Positions 19,144 to 43,748 of a stretch of 64,000 nucleotides of DNA are shown piece by piece. Source of the stretch: Escherichia coli (GTDB lineage Bacteria > Pseudomonadota > Gammaproteobacteria > Enterobacterales > Enterobacteriaceae); NCBI RefSeq assembly GCF_017348835.2, contig NZ_CP071375.1. One strand, 5' to 3'. Position 1 is the stretch's first letter. The number at the start of each line of letters is the position of its first letter. A program made the translations under genes and the position numbers. The notes beneath the pieces are model-generated. The model saw only the letters and a program-made list of their open reading frames with translations. It had not been told where the DNA came from and ran no database searches.

Positions 19144-19182
19144 ACGCTACCGCCCCTGGCTTAACAGCTACCAGTGCACTGC
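19144..19182 (-). promoter_or_regulatory. JUMPstart element with ops motif (RfaH-dependent antitermination site) upstream of the O-antigen operon
   Basis: Plus strand reads acgctaccgcccctggcttaacagctaccagtgcactg; the reverse complement contains GGCGGTAGCGT (ops) within the 39-bp JUMPstart consensus, in the galF-to-first-O-antigen-gene spacer. Confidence 0.75.
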
Positions 19183-19438
19183 GAACTTTCATAGACGTGT
19201 TGAACTCTGCTTTCAGTCGCAAAGCCTCTAAACTCAAACACTAATTGTCTTACCATTCGGTGTCAGAAACAAGAAGAAATACTACAAAATCCAGTTCAAA
19301 ATTTTGTAGCTAACTCAATGAAAACAAACACCTTTCAGCAAAAACGGCAGAAACATTCTTTTCTTACCGGCATCACTGCCTCGAATGTTAACTGCTGTTT
19401 ATAGATTTTTAATCAATCAAACTGGCTAATTTGTGGTC

Positions 19439-20332
19439 TTACTCACTAAGCAATTTTTCAATGCTTTTCCGGAATTTCGGCCCTTCTTTCAGGTTACGCA
19501 ATCCGTACTTAACAAACGCCTGCATGTATCCCATTTTTTTACCGCAGTCGTAGCTGTCTCCAGTCATCAGCATGGCATCAACGGACTGTTTTTTCGCCAG
19601 TTCGGCAATGGCATCAGTCAGCTGAATACGTCCCCATGCACCTGGTTGAGTGCGTTCTAGTTCCGGCCAAATATCGGCAGAAAGCACATAGCGACCAACG
19701 GCCATGATGTCTGAGTCCAGCGTCTGCGGCTGATCCGGTTTTTCGATAAATTCGACGATGCGACTGACTTTACCTTCACGGTCCAGCGGCTCTTTGGTCT
19801 GGATGACCGAGTATTCAGAGAGGTCACCCGGCATACGTTTTGCCAGCACCTGACTGCGGCCCGTTTCATTGAAACGTGCAATCATGGCAGCAAGGTTGTA
19901 ACGCAGCGGGTCGGCGCTGGCGTCGTCGATCACAACGTCTGGCAGCACCACGACAAATGGATTGTCACCAATGGCAGGTCGTGCACATAAAATGGAGTGG
20001 CCCAAACCTAAAGGTTCGCCCTGACGCACGTTCATAATGGTCACGCCCGGCGGACAGATGGACTGCACTTCCGCAAGCAGTTGACGCTTTACGCGCTGTT
20101 CAAGGAGAGATTCTAATTCATAAGAGGTGTCGAAGTGGTTTTCGACCGCGTTCTTGGACGCGTGAGTTACCAGGAGGATTTCTTTGATCCCTGCAGCCAC
20201 AATCTCGTCAACAATGTACTGAATCATTGGCTTGTCGACGATCGGTAGCATCTCTTTGGGAATCGCCTTAGTGGCAGGCAACATATGCATCCCAAGACCC
20301 GCTACAGGAATAACTGCTTTTAAATTCGTCAT
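19439..20332 (-). CDS. galF: GalF, UTP-glucose-1-phosphate uridylyltransferase regulatory subunit
   Basis: Protein [14 protein letters not shown]... recognised as GalF; the ORF track starts 4 codons upstream (20344). Flanks the O-antigen cluster as in E. coli. Confidence 0.9.
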
Positions 20333-20506
20333 TATTTCATCCACCTGTAAAATGGTTGCTGAATTATAGCTTGTTCGATTTTTTTCGCCAGCATCAATTA
20401 CCCTGAATTGATTACTGAATTACTTGTGATGTTACGCCGCTTCGTTGTGGATTGCAGTAGCATTGTTCCTAAGTATGGCTCCATTTTTCCAGGAATGGTC
20501 GCAAAT

Positions 20507-21901
20507 CTACTCTCTCCGTTCCGGCAATCTAAAGTTAATCTTTTCCACATTAACAATATGGTGATTAATCCTGTCGATATCGACGGAGCTTTGCCCACTT
20601 TCATTCACCGCATGAACATTTGCAAGAGACAGCAGTGTTTCTTCTTTCGCCATAAAGACGCCTCGAACGTCTTTGCGCATGTCGAAGTTCATGCTCAATG
20701 CTGGTCCAACAGAGGATTCCTGCATCACTTTGATATTACGCATAAAAAGATGTTGCGGTTTGTTGTGAAGCTCCAGCGAGGCACGCTTCATCTCAATGTT
20801 AGTCAGTGCCACAAAGGAGACGGCATTCCCGGCGGAGATTTGGATGCCGCGCAATTTATAAGCAAGATGGGTGTTATCCAGTTGAATATTATTCACTCGG
20901 AAATTTTGCGGTATCGAGAGATATTTGCCTTTAATTACCCCATAGCCTATTAACATCCCGGCGCTATTAATCATTTCAATATTATCAATCACGAAATTGT
21001 CACAACCGTAAATAGCGACTGTCGCGTTATCAATGCCTGCTTTCTTACTGAAATCCGGCGTGATATTGCAGGCTTTGATATTACGAATAACAAAATGTTT
21101 ACCATTTTCAACATGGATCAACTGCCGACAATCCGATCCCGTGATATTCGCCACGACAAAGTTTTTCACTGCCTGGTCTTCCGGGTAGTTATTATCATAA
21201 GTACTCCCCGCAAGGCCTATGCCAATGCCCCAGTTGATTTTGCCGTTGGTACAGTTGATGCGCTCGATGACATGGTCGGAGATCAAAATATCACTGTCGT
21301 TAATCGCCACGTTCCATTCAATGGCGTCGCCCTGTAAGTCGCTGAACTTACAGTTGGTGATGTTGGCACCGATAATCTGGTTATGAAATCCCTGGCGCAA
21401 AATAGCGTAATTAGCGTGGTTAACGGTCAGGTTATCGATGGTCAGGTTGCGCATGACCCGTTTGTTTTTGCCGCCGATATAAATCTGCGTTACCGGGCCA
21501 AAGCCGCTCATCGCCAGCCCTTTGATGGTGCAGTCAGAACCACGCACATCCAGGGTGATGTTATGCATACTGCCGCCCTTCTCCCCTGTCACCTGGCTGC
21601 CGTCCTGTAAGACAAATCGCCCTCTGCCGTTGCCGCGCAGGCTTCCAAGGATGTGTAACGTTTTGCCGGGAGGGATGAAGATGCCGGTGTTGATATTGTC
21701 ACAAACGAATCCGGCAGGCACGACGACTGTTTGCCCTTCGCTGAAGGCTTGTTTAAATGAGGCGATCCAGTCGTGAGGGTTGTAGTCGTTAATGTTAACG
21801 CTTTGTCGGGCGGGAAGTGCGCGAGCGAAAGGGGTATGGAGGAAGGCAAGCGCCGAGCTTGCCGTCAGGAAGGTGCGTCGGGAGAGTGTTTTAAATGGCA
21901 T
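20507..21901 (-). CDS. wcaM: Colanic acid biosynthesis protein WcaM
   Basis: 464 aa, N-terminal Tat-like signal ([20 protein letters not shown]), beta-helix-like; last gene of the colanic acid cluster. Confidence 0.9.
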
Positions 21902-21911
21902 ACGTTCTCCT

Positions 21912-23132
21912 CTATAAAGCCTGTAACAAGCTGGCGAGTTCTCGATTAATCACCTGCTGGTTAAAATCGTGTTCGACTTTTTCGCGCGCACGTTTGACAA
22001 CCGGAGCCAGTTCGTCAGTGTCCAGTTGGCTAAATGCCGCCAGACGTTGCGCCAGTGCGCGAGCATCGTTCTCAGGCACCAGCCAGCCGGATTTATCGGC
22101 CTCCACCAGTTCCGGTATTCCGCTATGCAGAGTAGAAACCACCGGAATGCCGACCGCCATCGCTTCCATCAGCGCTACCGGAATGCCTTCCATATCGCCA
22201 TCCGCGCCCGTTACCGATGGCAACAGGAAGACATCCGCGTCGTCGAGCATCGCTTTCACTTCATGGCTCGGTTTAAAGCCCGGCATCTCCACCACATCTT
22301 CCAGTTGATATTGTTCGATGAGGGTGCGCAGGCGTCTTTCCCACGGGCCAATGCCGAGGATGCGATAGCGAAATGCCACGCCCTGCTCTTTCAACTGCCG
22401 ACAGGCTTCGATCGCCACATGCAGGCCTTTTTTCTCGGTTAAGCGTGCGACGGAAATGATTTCCAGCGGCGTTGCGGGCGCTTTCACCGGACGCGGGCTA
22501 AAGCGCGTCATGTCCACGCCCATACGCGATACGGCGATTTTTTCTCTGGGGCAGCCCATTTTTTGCAGCCTTCCTGCCCACAGATCGCTTATCGGTAACA
22601 TCAGGTCGCCACGGCGAAACAGTTGTTGATATTCGGGAGTGTAGTGGTTGAGCACTTCCCGACTGGAGATATCAATACCGTGGAAGATGGTGGCAATTTT
22701 GCCGCGAATGACACCCAGTTCGCGTAGTTTTGCTGCGGTTACCCCCGCCGGGCCAAAATGAGCGATAAAGACATCGGCATGAAACGGTGTTGCGACCTGG
22801 CCGCAAATGGCAGACAAAATCAGGTTTCGCGACTCAGCACCATAGCGTTTGAGGTTGAGCGCCTGCCAGGTATTTTTACGATGAATGCCGTGTAAGGTCT
22901 GGCTGGCGCGGTGGCGCAGTTTCGCAACTTTGCCTTGTGGTTCGTCCTGTAACCAGCGGGTTCTGGCGGCAAGGTTGTATTTCGTCCATGCCGCGTGGGT
23001 ATTCTGGGTGTCGCCTTTTTGCAGCGCGACAATCTCCACTTCAAAGCCCATATCAATAAACGCGGTAATTTGATTGAGGACGAAGGTTTCCGACGACAGC
23101 GGAAATTTCAGTAAAAAGAAGCCGACCTTCAT
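21912..23132 (-). CDS. wcaL: Colanic acid glycosyltransferase WcaL
   Basis: 406-aa GT4 ORF, recognised and in conserved order. Confidence 0.9.
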
Positions 23133-24409
23133 TTCACCTCCCCGATGCGTTCAAGCACAGATTGCACCATCTGCATTCCTGTATGACGCTCACGACTGAC
23201 AGCTTCGTTAAGTCGTGCGTTCAGCGCCGGAAGCTGGCCTAAGGTATCCGCAACCATCGCTTGCAGGCTGCCGTCCAGTAAATGACGGATATCAATTGCC
23301 ATCTCCGGTAGTCCCAGCTGCTGCATGATCCCGGCGGATTTATGTTCATAGTTGATGGCAATCGCCGGAGTAGCAAAGTTCATTGAGATAATAGCGGAGT
23401 GCAGACGCGTACCAACGGTGAGTTCACAGGCACCGAGAATTTTGCCCATTTCCAGATCGTTAAGTTCATCCATCACTACGTGGTAACGGGCAGGATCGCT
23501 GATATGCTGGCGCAGGTTGAGCGCCACCATGCGGTCGTCTTTGTTATAACTGTCGATGCCCGTACAGGTGGAGAGCGCAATCACCTGATAGCCTTCGTCG
23601 AGAATGCGATTGACCACCCCGGCAAAGGCTTTTTCATACGCTTGCTGAGTGGTGCCGAGACGTTTGTCGAACGGTGCCAGTTCGCGCAGGGTAATTGCCA
23701 CCGTTTTCTGTTGTGCGGCAACGTCCAGCCAGTGTTGGACGGCATAGCTGGCGGTGAAATCTTCGGTGTGGTGATCGACCAGCCACGCGGTATCGACGCC
23801 ATGTTCAACTTTTGCAGTGGTGATATTGCTGCGTTTCATCAGATCAAGACTGACCGATTCGCGCAGGATCAGCGCGTCACAGTGACCAAAAACGTAGTTC
23901 GCCAGTTGGTTAAATTGCTCATCCTGGAAGGGGCCGACGCTGTGACCAATCATAAACAGCGGCTTTTTCGCCATAAACGTGCAAAGCGCATGTTCAAACT
24001 GCGGCACGCCATAGAGATCGACAAAAAACGATCCGCCGACCTGGATAATGGCGTCGTAACCTGACAGCAGGCGCACGAAGTCGGTGAATCCCTGGGCGAT
24101 GGCGATATTACGCAGCTTGCCAGTGTCGGTGACGCGCGAGAGCAGTACCTGGTGCTGATAGCGGCGACGGAGGACTTTTTTAACGCGCCCGACAACGCCC
24201 GCCGCGCTGTTGTGTTGTTTCATTTGAAGGAACAGCGGATCACCCATTACCGGGCGGTTGAGCAGCCAGGAAGAACTGACCGGATAGCGGCTCATCACGT
24301 CCACTTCGGCTTGTGGATTGAGGATGTTGATGGCATCAAGTAAGCCGCGCAGGATGGCGCTGTCGCCACGATTGCCGCAAGTGTGGTTGCCCAGAATAAG
24401 TAATTTCAT
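23129..24409 (-). CDS. wcaK: Colanic acid pyruvyltransferase WcaK
   Basis: 426-aa ORF recognised as WcaK; overlaps wcaL start by 4 nt. Confidence 0.9.
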   Translation of the reverse strand: MKLLILGNHTCGNRGDSAILRGLLDAINILNPQAEVDVMSRYPVSSSWLLNRPVMGDPLFLQMKQHNSAAGVVGRVKKVLRRRYQHQVLLSRVTDTGKLRNIAIAQGFTDFVRLLSGYDAIIQVGGSFFVDLYGVPQFEHALCTFMAKKPLFMIGHSVGPFQDEQFNQLANYVFGHCDALILRESVSLDLMKRSNITTAKVEHGVDTAWLVDHHTEDFTASYAVQHWLDVAAQQKTVAITLRELAPFDKRLGTTQQAYEKAFAGVVNRILDEGYQVIALSTCTGIDSYNKDDRMVALNLRQHISDPARYHVVMDELNDLEMGKILGACELTVGTRLHSAIISMNFATPAIAINYEHKSAGIMQQLGLPEMAIDIRHLLDGSLQAMVADTLGQLPALNARLNEAVSRERHTGMQMVQSVLERIGEVK

Positions 24410-24468
24410 TTTTTCCTCATAAATTTGATGCCAGGTGAGGCTGTGTTTGTTGTGTCCGTTGCCGCTTT

Positions 24469-24850
24469 TTGCCTGATGCGACGCTGGCGCGTCTTATCAG
24501 GCCTACAGGTCCCGAGCACAGAACCGTAGGACGGATAAGGCGTTCACGCCGCATCCGGCATTCAGTGCCTGATGCGACGCTGACGCGTCTTATCAGGCCT
24601 ACAGGTCCCGAGCACAGAACCGTAAGACGGATAAGGCATTCACGCCGCATCCGGCATTCAGTGCCTGATGCGACGCTGACGCGTCTTATCAGGCCTACAA
24701 GATCCAAGCACAGAACCGTAGGATGGATAAGGCGTTCACGCCGCATCCGGCATTCAGTGCCTGATGCGACGCTGGCGCGTCTTATCAGGCCTACAAGACC
24801 CGAGCACAGAACCGTAGGCCGGAATAAGGCGTTTTACGCTGCACCCGGCA
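24469..24850. repeat. REP/BIME array (about four tandem units of paired, inverted REP sequences)
   Basis: Repeated gcctgatgcgacgct(g/a)(g/a)cgcgtcttatcaggcctaca alternating with the inverted gtaggacggataaggcgttcacgccgcatccggca, with a period of roughly 100 bp, in the wzxC-wcaK spacer. Confidence 0.85.
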
Positions 24851-24877
24851 ACCGTTGTCGGAACCGAAAACAACAAC

Positions 24878-26356
24878 TCACCCCGCCCGTAAAAGCATTT
24901 TCATTTTTTCGCTGCGACAAAACTGACGCTTCACTTCCACCACCAGCGGATGGCGCGACAGCACAATCATCACTACAAACGCCAGCACGCCCGCGGCTAT
25001 TTGCACCGCCAGCAGCATCCCCAGCGCCAGTTGCCCTTTCAGCACAATGCCCAGCGCATAACTGACCACCAGCGTCGGCAGCGATAGGTAAAACGGCAGC
25101 CACAAACTCAGGATGTACTGGCGATAACTGGAACCAAGAACCGGTTTAATCATCACGAAGTAACTCAGAATGGTGTTGATAATCTGCACCAGCAGGAAGC
25201 CAAGCGTGACGCCGATTGCGCCCGCCATCTGCCCACCAATAACAATCGCCGGAATAAACAGAAATGTTTTGAATACGTTGAATTTAAAGCTGATATCGAC
25301 CCGCGCTTTCGCCATCAGCAGCGAACCAATCGGGTTACCCACCGAACGCAGCAGACCCACCACACACAGCAATTGCAGCACCGGAATAATGCTGTTCCAC
25401 TTCTCACCAAAGACCAGCGGTACAAAGTTATTCGACACCACCATCAGCCCCAGCAGCGCCGGAAAGTTGATAATCCCCACCACCGACAGCAGCTTGTAGA
25501 AGTTGACGCGCAGCTTTTCGGTGTCGTCCTGAATTTTGGCAAACGCCGGAAACAACACGCGCGTGATGATTGGGTTCAGCTTCATCGGAGGCACAACGGC
25601 CACGTTGTACGCCAAGTTGTATCCCCCTGCCACGCCCGCGCCGAGAATACGCGCCAGCACCAGCGTTGAAAGGTTGGTATTGAGATAGTTGATGATGCTG
25701 TCCGCCGTCAGCCAGGCACCAAAGCGTAAGTTTGGTGCCACCGACGCCAGCGAGAAATGCAGACCGGGGCGATAAATTTTTCGACCAAAGTAGCCAAACA
25801 GCAGCGTTCTTACCGCACTATTGACCAGATAACCGAGGATCGCGGTCATCGCCAGCGGCCAGAAATGGGCGCTAACCACCGTAAAAGTGAAGCCCGCCAG
25901 CACCGCGCTGGTTTCGATCATGCCGATTTTGTTGAACTCCAGTTCCTTTTGCATCAACGCGCGGAACTGCTGCCCGTGGGGGATCACCACAAACGCCAGC
26001 GACAATGTTTTAATCAACGGTGCCAGGTCCGGGTTATTCAGCACGTCGCCGATGACATCACTCAACAGAAACACCGCCACGCACACCACGATCCCCAGTC
26101 CGACGTTCAGCCAGTACAGCGTGGTGAGTTCAAGGTGGCTGATTTCTTTTCGCTGAATAATCGAGTTAGCGATACCGAAGTCAGAAAGCGTATCTGCCAG
26201 CGCGATAATCACCAGCGACACAGTCAGCAGGCCGAACTGGTGGTTGTCGATAATCCGCGCCAGCACGGTCATCTGCACCAGCCCGAGACCGATGATGATC
26301 ACCGTAGCAATCGCCGACCACTTCGCGCCGCTGATGGTTTTTTCACGTAAGCTCAT
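24878..26356 (-). CDS. wzxC: Colanic acid repeat-unit flippase WzxC
   Basis: 492-aa polytopic membrane ORF recognised as WzxC. Confidence 0.9.
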   Translation of the reverse strand: MSLREKTISGAKWSAIATVIIIGLGLVQMTVLARIIDNHQFGLLTVSLVIIALADTLSDFGIANSIIQRKEISHLELTTLYWLNVGLGIVVCVAVFLLSDVIGDVLNNPDLAPLIKTLSLAFVVIPHGQQFRALMQKELEFNKIGMIETSAVLAGFTFTVVSAHFWPLAMTAILGYLVNSAVRTLLFGYFGRKIYRPGLHFSLASVAPNLRFGAWLTADSIINYLNTNLSTLVLARILGAGVAGGYNLAYNVAVVPPMKLNPIITRVLFPAFAKIQDDTEKLRVNFYKLLSVVGIINFPALLGLMVVSNNFVPLVFGEKWNSIIPVLQLLCVVGLLRSVGNPIGSLLMAKARVDISFKFNVFKTFLFIPAIVIGGQMAGAIGVTLGFLLVQIINTILSYFVMIKPVLGSSYRQYILSLWLPFYLSLPTLVVSYALGIVLKGQLALGMLLAVQIAAGVLAFVVMIVLSRHPLVVEVKRQFCRSEKMKMLLRAG

Positions 26357-26357
26357 A

Positions 26358-27752
26358 TCAATATGCCGCTTTGTTAACGAAGCCTTTGAATACCGTCAGG
26401 AAAACGATTTTGATATCGAACCAGACGCTCCATTCGCGGATGTACTCAAGGTCGAACTCGACGCGTTTTTCCATTTTCTCCAGCGTGTCGGTTTCGCCGC
26501 GCCAGCCGTTAATCTGCGCCCAGCCGGTAATGCCCGGTTTCACTTTATGGCGCAGCATGTAGCCTTCAATGAGCTGGCGATACTGTTCGTTATGCGCCAC
26601 CGCGTGCGGACGTGGACCCACAATCGACATCCCCCCGGTCAGCACATTGATAAACTGCGGCAGTTCATCCAGCGAGGTGCGGCGCAGAAAGTTCCCCACT
26701 TTGGTGACGCGCGGATCGTTCTGCGTCGCCTGGGTCACCACTTTGTCGTTCTCCATCACTTTCATGGAACGGAACTTCCACACTTTGATCGGCTTGCCAT
26801 CCATGCCGTAGCGAGTCTGGCGGAAAATAACCGGCCCAGGTGAACTGAGTTTCACCGCCAGCGCAATGCAGCACAGCACCGGGGAGATCAGCAGCAGGAT
26901 AAGCGTCGCCAGCACAATGTCTTCCGCACGTTTGAGCAGGCGGTTAACCCCGGAAAGCGGCGTGTCGTAAAGCGGCACCACCGGAACGCCGTTCATCTCT
27001 TCAAGACGTGAATGGAGAATGTTGAAGGTAAAGACATCGGGGATCAGCAGCACCGAACAGGTGGTGTCCGCCAATTGATGGACCAGTTTTTTCACTCGCG
27101 CGCCGTCGCACATTTGCATCGCGATATAGACGTTATGAATCTTGCCCGCTTTCGCGTCCTCGACCAGCTGTTGCAGATTACCCGCCCAGTCGTTAGAAAC
27201 GCCGCCCGGTTTCGGGTCGTGGTAAACGCCCACCACTTCAAACCCTAACCACGGCTGGTTACGGAAGCTCTCCATCAGCATTTGCCCGGCGGCTAAATCC
27301 CCCGCCACCGCGACCATGCGCTTGTTATAGCCATGATTACGCAGCCAGCCCGCCCCAATGCGAATACATGAACGGCAAACCACCAGTCCGATGCTGGTCA
27401 GCCCATACCACGCCAGCCAGATTTTCAGTTGCGTGTCGAAATCATTGTTGAACGCCACCAGTCCGGCGCTGAAAATCACGCTTAAGGTCCAGTTTTGTAG
27501 CAACAGGGCAAATTCTGTCGCTGCCCGAACACCGCGCCATGAGCGATAAAAATCGGTGATGCCACCCAGCATCTGGAACACCACCAGCGTAATCAGCGCC
27601 ACCAACAGGTGCATGTAGAGGAATGACAGGCCGCTCACTTCGCAAACCAGCCATAGTCCGGCAAACATGATGGTGATATCTGAAAAGCGTTGCACCATAG
27701 AGATTAACGATGCATTGGTTTTCGCTCGCTCGCGCTTTTTTAGATTTGTCAT
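26358..27752 (-). CDS. wcaJ: Undecaprenyl-phosphate glucose-1-phosphate transferase WcaJ
   Basis: 464-aa ORF with polyprenyl-phosphate hexose-1-P transferase C-terminus (LDELPQF...GPRP). Confidence 0.9.
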   Translation of the reverse strand: MTNLKKRERAKTNASLISMVQRFSDITIMFAGLWLVCEVSGLSFLYMHLLVALITLVVFQMLGGITDFYRSWRGVRAATEFALLLQNWTLSVIFSAGLVAFNNDFDTQLKIWLAWYGLTSIGLVVCRSCIRIGAGWLRNHGYNKRMVAVAGDLAAGQMLMESFRNQPWLGFEVVGVYHDPKPGGVSNDWAGNLQQLVEDAKAGKIHNVYIAMQMCDGARVKKLVHQLADTTCSVLLIPDVFTFNILHSRLEEMNGVPVVPLYDTPLSGVNRLLKRAEDIVLATLILLLISPVLCCIALAVKLSSPGPVIFRQTRYGMDGKPIKVWKFRSMKVMENDKVVTQATQNDPRVTKVGNFLRRTSLDELPQFINVLTGGMSIVGPRPHAVAHNEQYRQLIEGYMLRHKVKPGITGWAQINGWRGETDTLEKMEKRVEFDLEYIREWSVWFDIKIVFLTVFKGFVNKAAY

Positions 27753-27806
27753 CGTTGTTCCTGTTATTAGCCCCTTACCCGCAGTGGGGTAAGGGAAGAT
27801 CCGACA

Positions 27807-29368: not shown

Positions 29369-29369
29369 T

Positions 29370-33476: not shown

Positions 33477-33478
33477 GC

Positions 33479-34600: not shown

Positions 34601-34626
34601 GTCTTATTCCTCTGTATTTTTTGAAT

Positions 34627-35175
34627 TTATTCAGTTTCAACGCGTTCGCGTATCACCACTGCGGGATTCCCCCGGCAAACCACATTTGCCGGAAGCGATT
34701 TAAAAACACTGCTTCGTGCACCCACGACGGTGCCGTCGCCAATCGTGACGCCAGGGGCAACAAAAACATCTGTCGCCAGCCAGCATTTCTCGCCAATCAC
34801 AATAGGCGTGGCGTTAATGGTGAAATGTTGACTTGCATGGTCGTGGCTCCCGGTGCATAAATAACTTTTTTGCGATATCACCGAATGTGCGCCAATGGTT
34901 ATTTCACCGAGGGTATATAAATTGACGTCATCGCCGACCCACGCGTAATCACCTAAGGTTAATTTCCACGGATAGGTAATTTTTACTGACGGCCGAATAA
35001 CTACGTTTTTTCCTATTTTTGCGCCGAATAAACGTAATAAAAATGCCCGCCAGCGATACAATACTTGTGGCGACCAGGCAAATAATGTTGCCTGTACTGC
35101 CCACCACAATTGCACTTTAATAGCGTTGCCACCCCGGAACCCTTTCGGCACCGAGAAACCGCTTAAATCCTGCAT
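34627..35175 (-). CDS. wcaF: Colanic acid acetyltransferase WcaF (hexapeptide repeat)
   Basis: 182-aa left-handed beta-helix acetyltransferase in conserved position. Confidence 0.88.
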   Translation of the reverse strand: MQDLSGFSVPKGFRGGNAIKVQLWWAVQATLFAWSPQVLYRWRAFLLRLFGAKIGKNVVIRPSVKITYPWKLTLGDYAWVGDDVNLYTLGEITIGAHSVISQKSYLCTGSHDHASQHFTINATPIVIGEKCWLATDVFVAPGVTIGDGTVVGARSSVFKSLPANVVCRGNPAVVIRERVETE

Positions 35176-35190
35176 CGTTTTCCCTTATAT

Positions 35191-35937
35191 TCAGCTTTTG
35201 TTATATAAGGCTTTCGTCTTTGAGGTAGTACGCTGGCGTAAATGCCAGGATAATTCTGCCCAGAAGCCAGGCACATGTAATATTTGCCGTTGGACTTTTT
35301 TGGCGTCAGCACACAATTCCATATTATTGGTGGTTGATACCCCACCCATGGAAAACTCAGACACCAGGCCATTGAGTTTTTTAAATGCATAACCGGCTTT
35401 ATACATTTTAGCCGCCAGCGCGTAATCGGAAGAAACTTTATATTCCAGGTCATAACGCCATTTTTTCAAACCGGATACCGGGAAAAATATCGCCTGATGA
35501 CTGGCGGGCAGGCTGTGATAAATATACCAACCCGGTTTGGCGCTACGTTTAATTTTATGCCCGTCGCCAAAATCCAGCAGCGCATCGCCGGTGATCATCA
35601 CGTTATCTTTTTGCATTTTTAACTTACGGACAAAATTTGCGGCATCCTGATGAAAAATATCGCCCGAGTTGAGAAACAACGCGAACTTGCCTTGTGCCAT
35701 CGCAATGCCTTTGTTCATGGCGTCGTAGATACCGTTATCTGGCTCGCTGACAAAGCGTAGGTTATAGATACCATTGAGATTTTCCAGATACTCACGGGTA
35801 CCGTCGTTGGAACCGCCATCGACAACAATCCATTCGAAGCTGATATCGTCCGCCTGCGCCAGATGCGCCAGCGAGGCATGTGTTTTGACTATTCCTTCGA
35901 GGTTACGAAACGCGACAGTGATTATGCTAAGCAACAT
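35191..35937 (-). CDS. wcaE: Colanic acid GT2 glycosyltransferase WcaE
   Basis: 248-aa GT2 ORF in conserved position. Confidence 0.88.
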
Positions 35938-35947
35938 GTTCTTATTC

Positions 35948-37165
35948 TTACCTCGTAATATTTAACGCTTTTCGCAAAATAAACGGACAGACGATTAAAA
36001 ATGCATATTCCGGGCTAAATATCGAACCGGTAAAAAACAGCGATACCGGAGTAAAAAGATATAATTGCACGCGAAAATTGCGGTTATCACCAAAAGCGTT
36101 GATCATCATTTTTATCACTTTCCCCATGTACCACAGCGATAAAAACACCGCGAACCAGGAAAAATAAATAATCAGCAGATACAAACCATTGTCTATGGTT
36201 TTTCCGACATCCGCACCGTTAAATATTCCGAATGATGCGACATATTCATAAAGTGAGCCAAATCTGACTACACCGTCAATATGGGTCAAAGAATAACCGA
36301 CCATCACCAGCGGACCGACAATACGATAATACGATGACGATCCTTCCGTACCTAAATCGCCCAGGCGGGTGGAAATATAAGGAAATGCAATTACCACACC
36401 AACCAGGAATACAGCCAGAGAAATCAATGCTAACGGTAACTTTTTCTTAATCGCCTCTTTATTCAGATATTGAAATGCCCACTCCAGCAAATAAAACAGG
36501 ATAAAGGTCATAACCCCTGAAAACGATCCGGATAATATTATCCCTACGAGAATCATAGCATCTGTTTTAGGCGTTTTGATACCAAACTGTTTGATGCTGA
36601 GCCAAATTGAGATTAATGCCAGAGCGAAAAATGCCGGTTCGAAATAAAGTGCTGTCGTGCGCTTGCCGCCGAATTTGATGAAATTCAGCACATAGCTGTT
36701 GCTGTAAATCAGATATTTCGAAATCGACTCCATAATACTGCTGCCGCCGGTGAGGATAATTTGCGCCATCTCCATCGCCGCCAGCGCCACCACCAGCCCG
36801 ACCACCAGATAAAAGAAACGTAAAATCTTGCGATGGTTGTGTGGCGAAATTGTTTTAAAACGAATACTCCACACCATGCCAATAATGATCACAATATAGA
36901 CAAACAGCATGGTTGAAGTGACGTATTTACTGGCATCCAGCGACTGACCAAACAGATAGTTAAACGCCGTGAGTCCCGCACCAATCCCTAAGGCAATCAT
37001 CAATTTTTTAACGCTGATGCGTTCTAAAAACAGCAGTAACAAGACAGGTAAAAAAGTGACGATGGTGATGGGGAAACTTTCGCCAAGCTGGGCGATTTTG
37101 ACGTTAACCAGCAGGTAGATCAGCGGCAGCAGCAGGTAGCTACAGATTCTGATAGAAGTTGACAT
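35948..37165 (-). CDS. wcaD: Colanic acid polymerase WcaD
   Basis: Polytopic membrane protein; likely start [15 protein letters not shown] (the ORF track extends 24 codons upstream to 37237). Confidence 0.85.
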
Positions 37166-38357
37166 ACTCCTCCAGCATCTGTTGTCCACTGTAGGCCGCG
37201 CGGCTGCGTTGGCTGAACTCAGCCAGCGTGGTACCAAATATCGCCTGCGCGATTTCCGGTTTGCTTAACTGCACCAGTTGAAGCACGTCTTCTTCGCTGA
37301 CGGTTTTACCGCCGGATTTTTGCAACACTTCCCGCGCCGCATCGCTATGGGTGGCAATCACCGGCACGCCAATTGATAACGCCTCACACAAAATCAGCGG
37401 GTAGTTATCGACGCGAGAACTGAATACCAGCGCATCCATCTGATTGAGCGCGCTCATCAACTTGCGCTTGTCAGTTTCAAAGCCGTGATTAACCACGTTG
37501 CCAGCGGTGAACGGCGAGAACTTACCAAAGGTATGCAGTTCGATTTTGTCGCCCAGCGCCATCATCTCACGCACCAGTTGCTGGTTAGTTTTGCCGTCGT
37601 AACGCAGGTCATGCGCCACCACCGCGATTTTCGGCTTGCCCTGGGTTTCGCGCACCGGAGGCAAGTCCGCCAGAATCGCCTCGGTTGCCATATCAATACC
37701 GTTATTGATAATCCGGCAACGCCCTGGACCGTACAGGCTATTGAAAGCGTCAGCCACATGCTGGCTGGGGGAAATAAACTGACAGCCCAGCGCCAGCATC
37801 TCACGGAATAACTGGCGTTTGCCCGCCACCAGTTGGTGTGCGCGATCAATCTTCACCGGCGGATAATTATTTAAGGTCGGGCATTTCTGGCAGCCCGTTT
37901 TCCAGCCTTCGCAACCGTCGGTAAAGGCGCAGCGTCCGGTTACACTCCAGTGGTCGTGCAGCGTCCAGACCAGAGTGACGTCCGGTTTGTGGTTTTTCAC
38001 CTTTTCGCAAAAGCGCACCACGCTCTTAAGATTTAGCCAGTAGCTGTGCAGCACATGAAAATGCAGGACCACCGGACCCGGTGTGCGAGTAATGGTGCGA
38101 TATAACTCATTGAAATTGCCAAACAGATCGCGATTAAACAGACGAAACAGGGCAATATTCGCCATTGCGGTCATCCGCGGCGTATGTTTGATTACCTGCG
38201 GATAGTTCTGATGGCTGACGCTCTCTTTGCCGCCTTTGCCGTAGCCGTAGACAAAATGTGACGCCAGCCCCTGTTGCAGCGCGCGCTGGTGGAGATCTAA
38301 CGCCACACCTGCTGCCCCGCCTTCCGCCAGTCGCACATTAAATTGCAGAATATTCAT
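37140..38357 (-). CDS. wcaC: Colanic acid glycosyltransferase WcaC
   Basis: 405-aa GT4 ORF; overlaps wcaB start by 4 nt. Confidence 0.9.
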   Translation of the reverse strand: MNILQFNVRLAEGGAAGVALDLHQRALQQGLASHFVYGYGKGGKESVSHQNYPQVIKHTPRMTAMANIALFRLFNRDLFGNFNELYRTITRTPGPVVLHFHVLHSYWLNLKSVVRFCEKVKNHKPDVTLVWTLHDHWSVTGRCAFTDGCEGWKTGCQKCPTLNNYPPVKIDRAHQLVAGKRQLFREMLALGCQFISPSQHVADAFNSLYGPGRCRIINNGIDMATEAILADLPPVRETQGKPKIAVVAHDLRYDGKTNQQLVREMMALGDKIELHTFGKFSPFTAGNVVNHGFETDKRKLMSALNQMDALVFSSRVDNYPLILCEALSIGVPVIATHSDAAREVLQKSGGKTVSEEDVLQLVQLSKPEIAQAIFGTTLAEFSQRSRAAYSGQQMLEEYVNFYQNL

Positions 38358-38842
38358 TTAATTACCTTCACTCGCGCTTTTTCTCCCACCACCAGCGCGT
38401 TGTCCGGGACAGAGTCGAGCACCACGCTGCCCGCGCCCACGGTGACGTTGTTACCAAGCGTGATATCACCAAGAATAATGACGTTGGCACCGAGTTCGAC
38501 GCCGTTGCCAATGTGTGGACATGCCATGTTATCGGCACCCCGATTGCCGATAGTGACTCCGTGGCGAATGGTGAAATCATCCCCCGCCACCACGTTTTTA
38601 TTGATCACTACGGCGTAACCGTGATGGATAGTAAAGCGGCGGCCAATGGTCGCGGCGGCCTGGATTTCATAACCGAAAAAGCATTCGGTGATAATGCGAT
38701 ACAGCACCAGCAGCGGGGCCGCCCACAGATTGTTGAGGACGTTCTTTTTGCGCCACACTGAACAAAAATGAGCAACACGATAGGCAAGTACCATGCAGCA
38801 CGGGCGTAAACTCCAGCTGTTGGCGCGCAGATCTTCCAGCAT
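38354..38842 (-). CDS. wcaB: Colanic acid acetyltransferase WcaB (serine acetyltransferase-like)
   Basis: 162-aa hexapeptide-repeat acetyltransferase. Confidence 0.88.
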   Translation of the reverse strand: MLEDLRANSWSLRPCCMVLAYRVAHFCSVWRKKNVLNNLWAAPLLVLYRIITECFFGYEIQAAATIGRRFTIHHGYAVVINKNVVAGDDFTIRHGVTIGNRGADNMACPHIGNGVELGANVIILGDITLGNNVTVGAGSVVLDSVPDNALVVGEKARVKVIK

Positions 38843-38844
38843 CT

Positions 38845-39684
38845 TTAGCGCCCCCGAATACCATCAGCCAGACGTTTGCCGTTACGCACCGACAGCAGCG
38901 TCAGCAAAGTGCGCCAGGTCATATGTTTATTGCGGATCTGGTAGAGGGTAAACAGCTGATATTTTTTGCTGGCGCGGTCAAATTTGTCTTTGTGCTTGCG
39001 GTAAAAGTGGAAGTATCCGGAGAATTTTTTCGGTGACGAGGTGATCTGCATTTCACCGTGATTGATATGCAGGATCTGCGTCGCCTCTTCCACTTTCCAC
39101 GGTTCGCCGTACTCCACCACCATCCGCAGGAAGATGTCGTAATCCTGTGCCGCTTTCAGTTCGGTATCGAACAAACACTCTTTGAAACGCCATGCCCAGG
39201 TAAAGACCTGATTGCCAATGATATTGCGTTTATAGAACAGGCGGCGTGAGTACGGCGATTTGGGATACAGTGGTAAGCTTGCCGGTTGGGAATAAACTTC
39301 TCCCTGGCATACGTAGTCGTTAGCGTACAAAAAGGCGTGAGTGACCAGTTGCTGTTTATGGGCGAGGAAGACGCTCAGGCGGTTGGGGGTCCATTCGTCA
39401 TCGTCATCGATCCCGGTAATGTATTCCCCTTGCGCCAGCATAATCGCCTGGTTACGTACCGCGCACGCCCCGCTGTTAATGTCGTTGTGAATGTAGGTAA
39501 TACGCGGATCGTTGAGGGCGGTGACGTACTGTTGCAGTTGTTCCCAGGAGGTGGAGCAATCATCCACGATGATCATCTCCCAGTTGCTGTAGTCCTGGCG
39601 CAAGACCGATTTTATCGCCCGAATCGCCAGTTGTTGGCGGTTCCAGGTCGGCATATAGATTGAGATCAGCGGATTGTCTTTCAT
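38845..39684 (-). CDS. wcaA: Colanic acid GT2 glycosyltransferase WcaA
   Basis: 279-aa GT2 ORF (SIYMPTWNRQQLAIRAIKSVLRQ). Confidence 0.88.
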   Translation of the reverse strand: MKDNPLISIYMPTWNRQQLAIRAIKSVLRQDYSNWEMIIVDDCSTSWEQLQQYVTALNDPRITYIHNDINSGACAVRNQAIMLAQGEYITGIDDDDEWTPNRLSVFLAHKQQLVTHAFLYANDYVCQGEVYSQPASLPLYPKSPYSRRLFYKRNIIGNQVFTWAWRFKECLFDTELKAAQDYDIFLRMVVEYGEPWKVEEATQILHINHGEMQITSSPKKFSGYFHFYRKHKDKFDRASKKYQLFTLYQIRNKHMTWRTLLTLLSVRNGKRLADGIRGR

Positions 39685-39713
39685 AGGTTGTTCTCCCGGC
39701 TTATGAGCTGGTT

Positions 39714-39755
39714 TGCTTGCCGGATGCGGCGTGAGCGCCTTATCCGGCCTACGGG
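39714..39755. repeat. REP element
   Basis: gcttgccggatgcggcgtgagcgccttatccggcctacgg in the wzc-wcaA spacer. Confidence 0.75.
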
Positions 39756-39776
39756 GCGGTGCGAATGCAGGCGTCG

Positions 39777-41939
39777 TTATTTCGCGTCCGACTTATATTC
39801 GTATTCGTAATAGCCATAATCCTGATACGCGCTGGCGCGGCGGAAGATGGAGTTCAGAATCACCCCTTTCACCGGAATACCGTTTTGCTCAAAGCGGCTC
39901 AGACTGGTTTCCACTTCTTTCAATGTGTTGACCGCATAACGCGCCACCATTAACGTGGTTCCGACATGACGACCAACAATTGCCGCATCGGTCACTGCCA
40001 GAATCGGCGGCGTATCAATCAACACCAGGTCATAGTTTTTACTCGCCCAGTTCACCAGTTCGGCAAAGCGTTCGCTCATTAACAGTTCAGAAGGATTTGG
40101 CGGCACCTGACCGCGCGGGATCAGGTCAAATTTGGCAATAGAGGTCGGTTTAGCTACGGTAGTAATATCGCCCTGACCAATCAGAATTTCCGACAGGCCA
40201 TTAACGTTATTAGTGCCCAACAGCTCATGGGTGTAGCCTTTGCGCATATCGCAGTCGATCAACAACACCCGTTTATTGGTCTGGCTGATCACTGCCGCCA
40301 GGTTGGCGCAGACAAAGGTTTTACCGATTGACGGGCTAACCCCGGTCATCATCAACACATTGTTCTGCGCCTGCATCATCGCGAAGTGCAGACTGGTACG
40401 CAGACTACGGATGGCTTCAATCGCCAGATCGGTTGGATTCCCCACCGCCAGTAGCTGGCTCTGTTTATAGCGTTTAATCCCTTTGATGGTTTTGACGCTA
40501 TCGCGCGCTTTCTGCCACTCCGACAGCGGGATGCTGGCATAGACGCTGATACCGTGTTCTTCCAGCACCTGCGGGCTTTCGATGCCGCGATTAAACAACG
40601 AGCGCAGCAGCACACCCACGATAGAGAGCATCAGGCCAAGGATAATCGCGCCGAGGATAATCAGCCCTTTCTTCGGTTTTAGCACGCCAGGCTGGGTGAT
40701 TGCCGGGTCAACAATGCGCACATCGCCGACGGTGCTGGCTTCGGTGATTTTCAGCTCCTGCTCTTTATTCAGCAGTTGCATATAGACCTGCTGACCAGAC
40801 TCGACATCGCGGGTCAGGCGCACAATCTCCTGCTGGGTTTTCGGCATCGCCGTTACGCGACCGTTAAGTTTGGCTTTCTCTTCTTCCAGCGCCTGACGTT
40901 TCTCCAGCAGCGTGCGGTACGCCGGGTGAACTTTGGTGTACAGCTTGGAGATTTCCGCCTCTTTAAAGGTCAGTTCGTTCAACTGCGCGTCGATGTTCAC
41001 CATCGAATCGAGCACCGCTTTCGCTTCCAGCGGCAGATCAACAGAATCTTTATCCTGACGGAAGGCATTCAGTTTGTTTTCGGCAACATCAAGGCGGCTA
41101 CGTACTTCCGGTAACTGTTGCGCGAGGAAAGCGAGGCTTTTCGACGCTTCCGCCGATTTGCGCTCAATATTTTGTTCCTGATAGTTACGGGCGATGCTGT
41201 TAAGAATGTCGCGGATCTGTTCGCGATCTTCACCGGTATAAGTCAGGCTCAGTACGCCTGCGTCTTTGCCGTTCTCCGTTACCGTCAGGCTGTTTTGCAG
41301 TTGGTTGATCATCCCCAGCTTGGAGTATTTGGTGATGGTAAACTCACTGCCCGGGCTGGCGTGAATAGCTTCAACCATCAGCGTGACGCCTTCTTTTGTC
41401 AGCATCTGGCCCGCTTGCCCACGGGCGCTAAAGCCGCCATCGCTGCTCAGAGTGTAGTTTTTATCGTCCAGCACATTAAGCGTAAACACCTGATCCGCCA
41501 TCTCTTTCGGACGGTTAAAGGTAGTCACTTTCACCGTCTCGTTCTGGCGTCCCATCAGACGATCCCAGCCCGCACCGAAAATCGGGAACGTGTTTTTGCT
41601 CACCGCAATATCGAGGTCGAGATCGTCCACCGTTTTACCAAGCACCAGGCGCGAACGAATCAACTGGATCTCGGCGTCCGATGCAGGCGGTTTGTTGGCT
41701 AACGCCGATCCGATATCCTGCACTAACGAATTGCCGCTGCTTTGCTCGATTTGTACCAGTGCGTCGGCACTATAAATCGGCGTGGCGAAGAAGGTGTAAA
41801 CCACGGCACAGAGGGCAAATACGGCGGTGATGCCAATCACCCACCAGCGCGCTTCAATGACGGTGCCGACCAGGCGACCAATATCGATTTCATCACTGCC
41901 CGTTACCGGAGCGGCATGTTGTTTTACTTTTTCTGTCAT
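39777..41939 (-). CDS. wzc: Tyrosine autokinase Wzc (polysaccharide co-polymerase 2a)
   Basis: Protein MTEKVKQHAAPVTGSDEID... with C-terminal Walker A and Tyr-rich tail (YQDYGYYEYEYKSDAK); the ORF track extends 12 codons upstream to 41975. Confidence 0.92.
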   Translation of the reverse strand: MTEKVKQHAAPVTGSDEIDIGRLVGTVIEARWWVIGITAVFALCAVVYTFFATPIYSADALVQIEQSSGNSLVQDIGSALANKPPASDAEIQLIRSRLVLGKTVDDLDLDIAVSKNTFPIFGAGWDRLMGRQNETVKVTTFNRPKEMADQVFTLNVLDDKNYTLSSDGGFSARGQAGQMLTKEGVTLMVEAIHASPGSEFTITKYSKLGMINQLQNSLTVTENGKDAGVLSLTYTGEDREQIRDILNSIARNYQEQNIERKSAEASKSLAFLAQQLPEVRSRLDVAENKLNAFRQDKDSVDLPLEAKAVLDSMVNIDAQLNELTFKEAEISKLYTKVHPAYRTLLEKRQALEEEKAKLNGRVTAMPKTQQEIVRLTRDVESGQQVYMQLLNKEQELKITEASTVGDVRIVDPAITQPGVLKPKKGLIILGAIILGLMLSIVGVLLRSLFNRGIESPQVLEEHGISVYASIPLSEWQKARDSVKTIKGIKRYKQSQLLAVGNPTDLAIEAIRSLRTSLHFAMMQAQNNVLMMTGVSPSIGKTFVCANLAAVISQTNKRVLLIDCDMRKGYTHELLGTNNVNGLSEILIGQGDITTVAKPTSIAKFDLIPRGQVPPNPSELLMSERFAELVNWASKNYDLVLIDTPPILAVTDAAIVGRHVGTTLMVARYAVNTLKEVETSLSRFEQNGIPVKGVILNSIFRRASAYQDYGYYEYEYKSDAK

Positions 41940-41941
41940 TC

Positions 41942-42385
41942 TTATACCTGCTCTGCGTTCAATGCCTGCGCCCACTGGCGGGCAGACCGTTCAAGTAATG
42001 TGTACACCGCTGCAAACGTTTCCCGGCTTTTGCGATACGGATCGGGGATTTCACATTCGTTATCCCAGTGACCAAACAGCATCACTTTGCCGCGCATCTC
42101 CGGTGCCATCTCGCATAAGCGTTCGATATGGCGCTTTTCCATGGTCAAAATCAGGTCGTAGTTGCGACACAGACGGCGGCTGATTTGACGGGCACAGTGA
42201 CCTTCCAGAGACAGTTGATGTTCTGCGGCGACGCTGATAGCGGTAGGATCAGCGCCCTTACCGACCAGCGCGCCGAGTCCAGCGGACTCCACTTTCAGCT
42301 CCGGGTGATAACGTTGCAGTAAGCGTTCCGCCGTCGGGGAACGGCAAATATTGCCGACACAGACAACTAATATGTTGTTAAACAT
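41942..42385 (-). CDS. wzb: Low-molecular-weight protein-tyrosine phosphatase Wzb
   Basis: 147-aa ORF with CVGNICRSP active-site motif. Confidence 0.92.
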   Translation of the reverse strand: MFNNILVVCVGNICRSPTAERLLQRYHPELKVESAGLGALVGKGADPTAISVAAEHQLSLEGHCARQISRRLCRNYDLILTMEKRHIERLCEMAPEMRGKVMLFGHWDNECEIPDPYRKSRETFAAVYTLLERSARQWAQALNAEQV

Positions 42386-42390
42386 GACGA

Positions 42391-43530
42391 TTACCAGTTA
42401 TGAATGTCGCTGGCTGTATCCGTCATGTAACGGACACCGCTAATAGTTGGCAGCAACTGATTGATCAGACGGTTCCAGCGGGAAACCGGGGCGGTGGTGA
42501 CATACACCACGTCATAAGGTTGCAGGCGGAATTCTGTCGCCATCACCAGCGACGTGGCATCGGACATATCCAGCTGGTAGATATTGGCAATCTTGCCGTT
42601 ACGCCCGCCCTCGCCTTTCAGCGGACGAATGACAAAGATGCCGCTGGCGTTGGAGGTGGTCATGTCGATGCCTTCAGCATTGCCCAGGGCTTCGGTCAGG
42701 GTCATGCCGCTAAAGTCCATTTTCAGGGTGCTCTGTTTCTTCACTTCACCCATCACAAATACTTTCAGATCATCATTACGCGGCACGTAGAGAATATCGC
42801 CGGGGTAAAGCAGTCGATTCTGGTTGAGGTCGCCGTTTTGCATCAGCGCCTGCAAAGAAATGCGCTCTTCACGACCATTGTGTGTTAGCACCACGTTGCG
42901 CCAGTCAGCGGTGTCGGTCAGGCCACCTGCGGCGTTGATGGCATCGAGAATGGTCAGTGGTACGTTGGTAATCGCCTGTTGACCGGATTTATTCACCTGG
43001 CCGGAGATATAGGCTTTTTGCGAGCGGAAGGCGGCGATATTAACGTCCACCTGCGGGTCAGCGATGTACGTCGCTAAGCGCCCGGTAATATCACTGCGGA
43101 TTTCAGCGAGCGTTTTCCCGACTACGTGAACCTTGCCGATATACGGGTAAAACATAGTGCCGTCAGGCTGTACCCAGTTGCCGGTGTCGCTGGAGCTGCG
43201 GTACTGACCGGCTGGCGTGGTGAGTTCCGGGTGATCCCAGACGGTGACATTCAGAACGTCCCCCGGCCCGACGCGATACTGGTAATTCGCGATCTCACTT
43301 TCCAGCGTCATATTGGGGCGCGCTACATTCGGGCGTGGGCGTAATTGGTCAATCAGGCGCGGGGTCAGCGGATAAACATTCACCATTTTGTCGAGATCGA
43401 AATCAGCGTCCTGCTGTTTGATGACGTCTTTGCCCATCGTCGACATATTGCTGCCCGGAAGTACTGTGCAACCGCTTATCAAGGTTACTGACACCAATAA
43501 TGGCATCAATTTCATTTTGGATTTCATCAT
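42391..43530 (-). CDS. wza: Outer-membrane polysaccharide export lipoprotein Wza
   Basis: 379-aa ORF with lipoprotein signal (LISGC) recognised as Wza; first gene of the colanic acid operon. Confidence 0.92.
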
Positions 43531-43709
43531 TGTTTATTTATCACTTTGGCAGAGTTATTATCCTGTGCACTATTAATAGCAATGTCGCCATGCACATTTA
43601 CCTTGCAGTTAATTGAATAAAAATTTAACTGGCATCAGTCCTAAAAAAATTGATTTCATCCGCAGGCTATTGACAGAATAATTCAGACTGGTCTTTCAGG
43701 CATCCAGAC

Positions 43710-43748
43710 ACGCTACCGCCCCTGGCTTTTTAGCTACCAATACACTGA
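43710..43748 (-). promoter_or_regulatory. JUMPstart/ops element upstream of wza (colanic acid operon)
   Basis: Plus strand acgctaccgcccctggctttttagctaccaatacactg; the reverse complement carries GGCGGTAGCGT. It is a near-duplicate of the element at 19144-19182. Confidence 0.75.

Follow-up and report, generated by a model that had tools for sequence, protein, structure and literature searches.

The occurrence of two long polysaccharide operons on the minus strand of a 64,000-nucleotide stretch of Escherichia coli DNA (the window) raises the question of whether each is preceded by a JUMPstart/ops element and, if so, whether both would be expressed through RfaH-dependent antitermination, as a first-pass annotation had proposed. 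The window is 99.996% identical to E. coli strain PE164 (O108).

Two JUMPstart/ops elements on the minus strand

From base composition, about 0.03 (0.027) exact matches to the 11-mer GGCGGTAGCGT would be expected by chance. Pattern search of the whole window revealed two, both in minus-strand orientation, at 19144-19154 and 43710-43720. When up to one mismatch was allowed, four matches were found in the window, a number reached in none of 100 shuffles. The JUMPstart model of Rfam (RF01707; curated gathering score, 35 bits) aligned over its full length, model positions 1-38, with both places, scoring 59.2 bits at 19143-19181 and 57.3 bits at 43709-43747, and no other match in the window reached the gathering score. 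By this covariance model both elements are JUMPstart/ops, one (19144..19182, minus strand) belonging to the O108 O-antigen operon and the other (43710..43748, minus strand) to the colanic-acid (wza-wcaM) operon. Both are intergenic, lie on the same strand as the polysaccharide genes downstream, and carry the ops core GGCGGTAG on the non-template (coding, minus) strand.

Over the two 39-nt spans, 33 of the 39 bases are identical. All six differences fall in the 5' half; the last 20 nt, at the 3' end, show none, and the identity is concentrated in CAGTG..TGGTAGCT...AAGCCAGGGGCGGTAGCGT. The first-pass annotation had spoken of the same, near-identical 39-bp element occurring twice; its positions and the JUMPstart identity stand, but "near-identical" was somewhat generous. 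It had also read an exact ops match in both copies, which is true of the 11-mer. Against the 12-nt reference GGCGGTAGCGTG, the wza copy matches at all 12 positions (43709-43720), whereas the O-antigen copy, GGCGGTAGCGTA (19143-19154), matches at 11, with A in place of G at position 12. The T11-G12 pause dinucleotide of the full ops (GGCGGTAGnnTG) is intact in the wza copy and altered to A12 in the O-antigen copy.

Three further ops 8-mers, at 31039, 44300 and 63042, were rejected as functional sites, being located inside coding sequences without JUMPstart context and mismatching ops at positions 9-12. RfaH is not bound at ops-like sites inside genes in E. coli CFT073 (PMC9765446).

We give practically no credence to the idea that the two matches represent chance similarity or a local duplication without function. 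Both exact matches, so far above the chance expectation, lie in leaders, and both copies exceed the RF01707 gathering score by more than 20 bits. The sequences flanking the 39-nt copies are unrelated to each other on either side, which excludes a segmental duplication. Moreover, 5425 of 5426 E. coli genomes, essentially the whole species, carry JUMPstart, the median being three places per genome, and the GTDB matches listed show it to be conserved in many Enterobacterales too. Match statistics, Rfam scores, flanks and conservation thus refute a fortuitous or functionless origin.

Operons, leaders and upstream sequences

Both elements sit where they had been placed, upstream of the O-antigen operon and of wza. 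The O-antigen copy occupies the gap between galF (19439..20332, minus strand), which separates the two operons, and the first O108 gene; its ops starts 138 nt before the ATG at 19016, and the JUMPstart 3' end lies 127 nt before that gene. According to the PE164 annotation and the list of open reading frames, 18 tightly packed genes follow at 93..19016 (minus strand), an operon of about 19 kb with a GC content of 0.41. It contains legionaminic-acid-type genes (LegC aminotransferase, neuC, neuB) and also the O108 wzx and wzy, fnlA/wbjC/wecB and wbuC. For the wza copy, the corresponding distances to the wza ATG, at 43530, are 190 nt from the ops start and 179 nt from the JUMPstart 3' end. Downstream, the PE164 record annotates 20 colanic-acid genes at 20507..43530 (minus strand; about 23 kb; GC 0.53), namely wza, wzb, wzc, wcaA-F, gmd, fcl, gmm, wcaI, cpsB, cpsG, wcaJ, wzxC, wcaK, wcaL and wcaM.

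The two leaders differ in their relation to other strains. The 179-nt leader 3' of ops before wza (43531..43709, minus strand) has one mismatch to K-12, against about 7% divergence upstream, and together with its JUMPstart it occurs in 4824 of 5426 E. coli genomes. The 127-nt O-antigen leader (19017..19143, minus strand) is serogroup-specific, homology to K-12 and CFT073 ending at ops T11. Neither first gene has a canonical Shine-Dalgarno sequence before its ATG: the best anti-Shine-Dalgarno duplex has -1.6 kcal/mol at wza and +0.2 kcal/mol at the first O108 gene, compared with -6 to -11 kcal/mol at many internal genes.

Upstream of the O-antigen JUMPstart, a promoter-like block, CTTGTTTC-N-GGTAAGACAATTAG (19241..19273, minus strand), reads the same in the window, K-12 and CFT073 although the sequence around it diverges, and probably serves as a promoter. 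The O-antigen unit of CFT073 begins 67 nt upstream of ops (PMC9765446, Data set S2A); by analogy, we infer that transcription of the O108 unit would start near 19220, about 66-67 nt upstream of ops. Farther upstream, just 3' of galF, a terminator-like hairpin followed by GUUUUUG (19340..19390, minus strand) folds with -18.8 kcal/mol (z = -2.45), and K-12 and CFT073 share its CTGCCGTT motif. Folding of the wcaM-galF gap gave no terminator-like structure (z = -0.35), and a scan for intrinsic terminators within both operons returned counts at the shuffle expectation (19 vs 14.9, 13 vs 14.7, 13 vs 14.4).

Upstream of wza, GC content drops to 0.32 (43749-44149) and 0.28 (43900-44100), compared with 0.49 for the window. 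About 80 nt upstream of the JUMPstart lies a sigma-70-like promoter candidate, TGGAGA-16-CATAAT (43830..43863, minus strand), conserved in K-12; it is the sole sigma-70 consensus match in 43500-44200, weak evidence given the 3.9 expected by chance. Two RcsAB-box-like motifs follow on the minus strand. Motif A, TAAAGAAATTCCTA (43969..43982), agrees at 11 of 14 positions with the consensus TaAGaatatTCcta (PMC4325325), and the candidate motif B, TAAGAAATATCGCA (44014..44027), at 9 of 14, retaining all five most-conserved RcsAB positions (T1, A3, G4, T10, C11). With up to three mismatches, seven consensus matches were counted window-wide against 4.2 expected, which is not significant, and a literature search for both candidate 14-mers found the consensus but no wza site. 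Of the earlier description of this region, then, the AT-richness and the weak motifs hold, although the number of motifs is not above chance. What lends the RcsAB part its credibility is solely the 95% identity of the region to that of K-12, a strain in which wza is an established target of RcsAB. Wehland & Bernhard in 2000 and Stout in 1996 are said to have reported this control, in which the RcsA-RcsB heterodimer binds its site and activates the K-12 wza promoter.

Probable RfaH loading and the variant position 12

In the mechanism that we favour, RNA polymerase would start at a promoter upstream of each JUMPstart, whose 3' end is ops: at wza, a promoter activated by RcsAB and silenced by H-NS; at the O-antigen operon, a constitutive one downstream of galF. 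Having entered the leader, the polymerase would pause at ops U11, and the exposed non-template strand, GGCGGTAG..., would fold into a small hairpin that RfaH reads. RfaH would then displace NusG on the polymerase, suppress pausing and Rho-dependent termination, and aid ribosome recruitment to first genes that have no Shine-Dalgarno sequence. Loading at ops would therefore allow polarity-free expression of both operons, the 23 kb for colanic acid and the 19 kb, of low GC, for the O108 antigen. We regard it as very probable that both elements load RfaH and that both operons are expressed in this way; the pause, the loading and the antitermination are inferred from published work on homologous loci.

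In that work, RfaH ChIP-seq in E. coli CFT073 found the factor at both loci, the O-antigen unit (wzx) and wza-wcaM (PMC9765446). The CFT073 wza ops is ChIP-positive, and its 12-mer and its -190 spacing are those of the wza copy in the window (PMC9765446, Data set S2A). In rich medium, however, the CFT073 wza unit is silent, and RfaH appears there only once hns and stpA are deleted (PMC9765446). The low GC of the O-antigen operon and the AT-rich sequence upstream of wza fit with RfaH targets bound by H-NS. The wca operon has been attributed to the JUMPstart-RfaH mechanism, citing Stout 1996 (PMC9976346), and the ops mechanism has been described together with the absence of a Shine-Dalgarno sequence before the first gene of RfaH targets (PMC5995543). 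The rfaH gene itself lies outside the window; 5425 of 5426 complete E. coli genomes have it, and the source strain almost certainly does too. Homologous CFT073 loci thus support the proposal that RfaH-dependent antitermination would act on both minus-strand operons. For the O-antigen cluster, JUMPstart/RfaH control was reportedly described by Wang et al. in 1998.

The A12 of the O-antigen copy might be thought to weaken its ops, such that the U11 pause is reduced, less RfaH loads, and O108 expression depends on RfaH partly or not at all. Indeed, position 12 belongs to the pause dinucleotide, T11-G12, and in vitro the U11 pause is lost with G12C (PMC5995543); in vivo, all tested ops substitutions except G2C reduce the RfaH effect (PMC5995543). 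G also prevails at position 12 of JUMPstart-like sites among the GTDB matches listed (G 49, A 3, T 2, C 2), frequencies that are a sample from a pattern scan of at least 120 rows, and the exact 32-mer with A12 occurs in only 15 E. coli genomes. Yet RfaH was still recruited in vitro with G12C (PMC5995543), and two A12 sites are RfaH-ChIP-positive in CFT073 (PMC9765446, Data set S2A): c1882, whose 12-mer GGCGGTAGCGTA is the same as that of the O-antigen copy, and kpsM, whose ops is GGCGGTAGCATA and which is bound in the wild type too. In other E. coli strains, too, the kpsM JUMPstart reads GCGTA. A weakened O-antigen ops is accordingly quite improbable, and a strict 12-nt consensus is not needed for RfaH binding, because the A12 sites in CFT073 are bound. 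By analogy with these sites, A12 would be within the functional variation of ops. Folding offers no help, as the 12-nt ops treated as single-stranded DNA in a nearest-neighbour calculation gave a trivial hairpin of -0.9 kcal/mol with G12 and A12 alike and did not reproduce the published C3:G8 hairpin, making the result uninformative.

RfaH loading at the DNA ops might also be accompanied, or replaced, by a cis-acting RNA stem-loop formed by the 5' half of JUMPstart (cUGGu...gCCAg). Weinberg et al. in 2010 reportedly found such a stem-loop conserved among JUMPstart elements. Rfam models a 5-bp stem that both copies fit; among the minimum-energy folds, that of the O-antigen copy includes this stem and that of the wza copy does not. 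Fold energies, moreover, are no better than those of shuffles (z = -0.39 and +0.19), and between the two copies there are zero compensatory changes, a C-G pair becoming U-G in the wza copy by a one-sided change. The GTDB scan allows no test of covariation, because the pattern searched held the stem's 3' arm constant. Since the non-template DNA strand alone accounts for RfaH recruitment (PMC5995543), we think a role for the RNA structure quite unlikely. It is likewise unlikely, if somewhat easier to entertain, that JUMPstart is kept mainly as a recombination junction, marking the 5' boundary at which O-antigen or capsule cassettes are swapped, a role that would add to RfaH loading and not replace it. 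The O108 locus is indeed homologous to those of O121, O16 (K-12) and O6 (CFT073) from galF as far as ops T11, where the core ends in GCGT, and no farther. Any mechanism would nonetheless place a boundary where serogroup-specific DNA starts, and wza, waaQ, kps, hly and type VI secretion loci, at which no exchange is implied, have the element equally conserved upstream of them.

With RfaH loading at both elements as the preferred reading, A12 could still have a consequence. In one speculative view, which we hold to be distinctly improbable, either A12 makes a tuned ops, or an Rcs-induced, RfaH-modified polymerase reads from the wza promoter into the O-antigen operon. A tuned ops would mean a weaker U11 pause and sub-saturating RfaH loading, with O-antigen output lower or more dependent on conditions than in G12 serogroups. 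In the case of read-through, the polymerase would pass wcaM, galF and the post-galF hairpin, coupling the two polysaccharides.

Comparison with known polysaccharide leaders

The observation is correct, and JUMPstart/ops before the colanic-acid and O-antigen operons is already known textbook matter; the arrangement is said to have been published by Hobbs & Reeves in 1994, Stout in 1996 and Wang in 1998. Our finding adds little, re-identifying two well-studied elements of the his-linked polysaccharide region of E. coli. Its value is for annotation, in that leaders, probable promoters and the 5' limit of the serogroup-specific O108 cassette are now marked. JUMPstart is reported, by Hobbs & Reeves in 1994, from the 5' untranslated leaders of polysaccharide clusters. 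Both copies here share with the JUMPstart family (Hobbs & Reeves 1994; RF01707) the 39-nt element, its location in such a leader, and its GGCGGTAGCGT end, and there is no difference of substance: the 6 of 39 positions at which the copies differ are within family variation.

The colanic-acid leader agrees with the wza (cps) leader of K-12 and CFT073 (Stout 1996; Wehland & Bernhard 2000; Hustmyer 2022) in the ops 12-mer GGCGGTAGCGTG and in the 190 nt to the wza ATG. The K-12 wza JUMPstart equals the wza copy here, and the 95% identity of the intergenic region includes both RcsAB-like motifs; at the place of motif A, K-12 reads TAAAGAAACTCCTA, one base different from TAAAGAAATTCCTA, and motif B is identical. 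The O-antigen copy has the same position between galF and the first gene as the known E. coli rfb JUMPstart/ops (Wang et al. 1998; Marolda & Valvano 1998; CFT073 wzx ChIP) and has the promoter-like block GGTAAGACAATTAG in common with those leaders. It departs from the K-12 and CFT073 rfb copies in having A where they have G at ops position 12, in the unrelated sequence of its 127-nt leader 3' of ops, and in leading into an operon for the O108 antigen.

The A12 ops is the sole mildly informative point of the finding. Together with the published ChIP data, this natural variant suggests that the ops rule of "TG at positions 11-12" is not absolute. The closest counterparts are the natural A12 ops of kpsM (group 2 capsule region 3) and c1882 in CFT073, which resemble the O-antigen copy in this base but belong to other operons, with other leader lengths.

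Two JUMPstart/ops elements in operon leaders

The first-pass annotation had described one 39-bp JUMPstart twice, upstream of the O-antigen operon and of wza, each with an exact core of ops, the 12-nt RfaH-loading site at its 3' end. Two elements are indeed found at these sites on the minus strand: GCAGTGCACTGGTAGCTGTTAAGCCAGGGGCGGTAGCGTATC (19182-19141, O-antigen copy) and TCAGTGTATTGGTAGCTAAAAAGCCAGGGGCGGTAGCGTGTC (43748-43707, wza copy). The 11-mer GGCGGTAGCGT matches perfectly in both, against an expectation of 0.027 for an exact 11-mer (base composition, 64 kb, both strands), which bears out the shared core. Over the 39-nt spans, however, the copies have 33 of 39 bases in common and are identical only over the last 20 nt at the 3' end. 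The Rfam model JUMPstart RF01707 (gathering score 35) is covered in full by both, with 59.2 bits for the O-antigen copy and 57.3 bits for the wza copy, and finds these two matches only in the window. Each element sits in an intergenic leader, on the coding strand, the ops starting 138 nt before the first O-antigen ATG and 190 nt before that of wza. The two-element observation is therefore correct and far beyond chance. Because the flanking sequences on either side are unrelated, these are two instances of a short motif and not a duplicated segment.

Three further GGCGGTAG 8-mers occur inside wcaI (31039-31046, minus, non-template strand; GGCGGTAGGCGG), antisense inside yegH (44300-44307, minus; GGCGGTAGTTTT) and in an ORF region near 63 kb (63042-63049, plus; GGCGGTAGCGAT). 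All lack JUMPstart context and were rejected as RfaH sites; in E. coli CFT073 (O6), intragenic ops-like sites show no RfaH binding (PMC9765446).

Operon boundaries and conservation

The window is 99.996% identical to the O108 strain PE164 over the 45.8 kb compared. From yegH (44150-45772, plus), which is divergent from wza across a 619-bp AT-rich intergenic region, the order continues with the 20-gene colanic-acid operon wza-wcaM (43530-20507, minus), galF (20332-19439, minus), a 422-bp gap holding the second JUMPstart, and 18 tightly packed O-antigen genes (19016-93, minus; GC 0.41), with wzx and wzy named O108 family by RefSeq; gnd lies beyond them, past the window edge. The O-antigen cluster carries a legionaminic-acid-type nonulosonic acid pathway (4,6-dehydratase, LegC aminotransferase, neuC, neuB, cytidylyltransferase), the L-FucNAc genes fnlA, wbjC and wecB, and a 529-aa protein annotated as hypothetical (8583-10172). 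Neither operon has a Shine-Dalgarno sequence before its first gene: the most stable anti-SD duplex is -1.6 kcal/mol at wza and +0.2 kcal/mol at the start of the O-antigen genes.

Intrinsic terminators are not in excess within either operon, and the wcaM-galF gap holds no terminator-like structure. Between galF and the conserved promoter-like block of the O-antigen operon there is a hairpin with a U-run behind it (19390-19340, minus; -18.8 kcal/mol, z = -2.45). The simplest reading is therefore that the O-antigen operon is a unit apart, which would have a promoter and an ops of its own. In CFT073 the wzx ops lies 67 nt from the unit start (PMC9765446 Data set S2A); by homology, transcription in the window would start at about 19220 or upstream, some 66 nt before ops. 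The terminator-like CTGCCGTT hairpin after galF, the conserved block CTTGTTTC...GGTAAGACAATTAG and JUMPstart are common to this gap in the window, K-12 (O16) and CFT073. Similarity to the O121, O16 and O6 loci extends from galF through JUMPstart and ends exactly after ops T11 (19144); JUMPstart thus delimits the serogroup-specific cassette on its 5' side.

Of 5426 complete E. coli genomes, 5425 contain matches to a 46-nt JUMPstart query, at a median of three places each. The same number carry rfaH, and 4824 carry the wza leader, with at least 95% identity in nearly all. Between K-12 and the window, the intergenic region before wza shows 95% identity, with an identical JUMPstart, and the leader from ops to ATG (43531-43709, minus) differs at 1 of 179 bases. 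Such low divergence suggests that something further constrains the leader, be it the structure of the RNA, the initiation of translation or a binding site. The 400 nt upstream of it diverge from K-12 by about 7%.

In the AT-rich DNA upstream of wza (GC 0.28-0.32), the RcsAB-box-like motifs were aptly called weak. Relative to the 14-mer consensus TaAGaatatTCcta (PMC4325325), TAAAGAAATTCCTA (43969-43982, minus) agrees at 11 of 14 positions and TAAGAAATATCGCA (44014-44027, minus) at 9 of 14, with all five most-conserved bases kept. Seven sites with at most three mismatches were seen in the whole window against 4.2 expected; without enrichment, a match to the pattern is no proof by itself. K-12 conserves both motifs, and it is established that RcsAB activates wza in that strain (cited to Wehland & Bernhard 2000 and Stout 1996).

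Other RNA and repeat elements

The 1-kb gap that precedes the ORF at 60221 contains three tandem SIB RNA genes (59299-59447, 59634-59776 and 59962-60104, plus; Rfam RF00113, 138-143 bits). K-12 has two at this locus, sibA and sibB, so the source strain may have one Sib/Ibs toxin-antitoxin copy more. Within the colanic-acid operon, the 192-nt cpsB-cpsG gap holds an algC RNA motif (29182-29231, minus; Rfam RF02929, 77.3 bits, gathering score 33.8), located directly before cpsG, the phosphomannomutase gene. The 468-bp wzxC-wcaK gap is filled by three tandem 96-nt REP-type units (24529-24791, plus; Rfam naRNA4, 65-73 bits); in K-12 it measures 275 bp and has about two units. The wzc-wcaA gap contains a REP-like hairpin, GCCGGATAAGGCG...CGCCGCATCCGGC (39700-39760, minus; -30.5 kcal/mol, z = -2.06). 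No U-run follows this hairpin, whose location corresponds to that of the stem-loop attenuator found downstream of wzc, before the next gene, in group 1 capsule clusters.

Ops position 12 and published RfaH targets

Careful alignment to ops, named beforehand as the test of the exact match, upholds the 11-mer in both copies, but the two differ at position 12, where the wza copy has G and the O-antigen copy A (A12). RfaH reads ops as a small hairpin, with T11-G12 serving as pause dinucleotide, and its binding requires G4, G5, A7 and G8; with G12C the U11 pause is lost, but RfaH recruitment is not abolished (PMC5995543). Among the matches listed from GTDB species genomes, JUMPstart-like contexts have G after GCCAGGGGCGGTAGCGT in 49 cases, A in 3, T in 2 and C in 2. 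A total of 1592 E. coli genomes have an exact word of at least 28 nt in common with the 32-mer query (same 5' variant), and the exact 32-mer ending in A occurs in only 15, including all nine with the window's galF-to-first-gene region. In other strains, the JUMPstart of kpsM (capsule region 3) ends in GCGTA as well. In E. coli AS19-RrmA- it lies (2497-2535 of that strain's kpsM locus) just 28 nt before kpsM, and its ops, GGCGGTAGCGTA, is the same A12 variant as in the O108 O-antigen copy.

RfaH-bound sites in CFT073 include c1882, whose ops GGCGGTAGCGTA is identical to the window's O-antigen 12-mer, and kpsM, with GGCGGTAGCATA (PMC9765446 Data set S2A). These bound A12 sites, which we consider decisive, argue that A12 is a minority but functional natural variant, and it does not refute the RfaH interpretation.

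ChIP-seq in wild-type CFT073 shows RfaH accompanying polymerase through wzx (O-antigen), kps, hly and rfa, and in cells lacking hns and stpA also along wza-wcaM, tssH, c4518 and c1882 (PMC9765446). The CFT073 wza ops, GGCGGTAGCGTG, lies 190 nt before wza (PMC9765446 Data set S2A), an exact match to the window's wza copy in sequence and spacing. JUMPstart-RfaH anti-termination of the wca operon under RcsA/RcsB control is described in PMC9976346, with reference to Stout 1996 and Hobbs & Reeves 1994. The work cited for the O-antigen cluster is Wang et al. (1998). Published evidence obtained directly at homologous loci supports the proposed RfaH-dependent antitermination of both operons. The GC contents of the O-antigen operon and of the wza upstream region fit the H-NS-bound character of RfaH targets, and coding strand, leaders, missing Shine-Dalgarno sequences and GC agree with the published RfaH mechanism. 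JUMPstart/ops at both operons is an arrangement already known since the mid-1990s.
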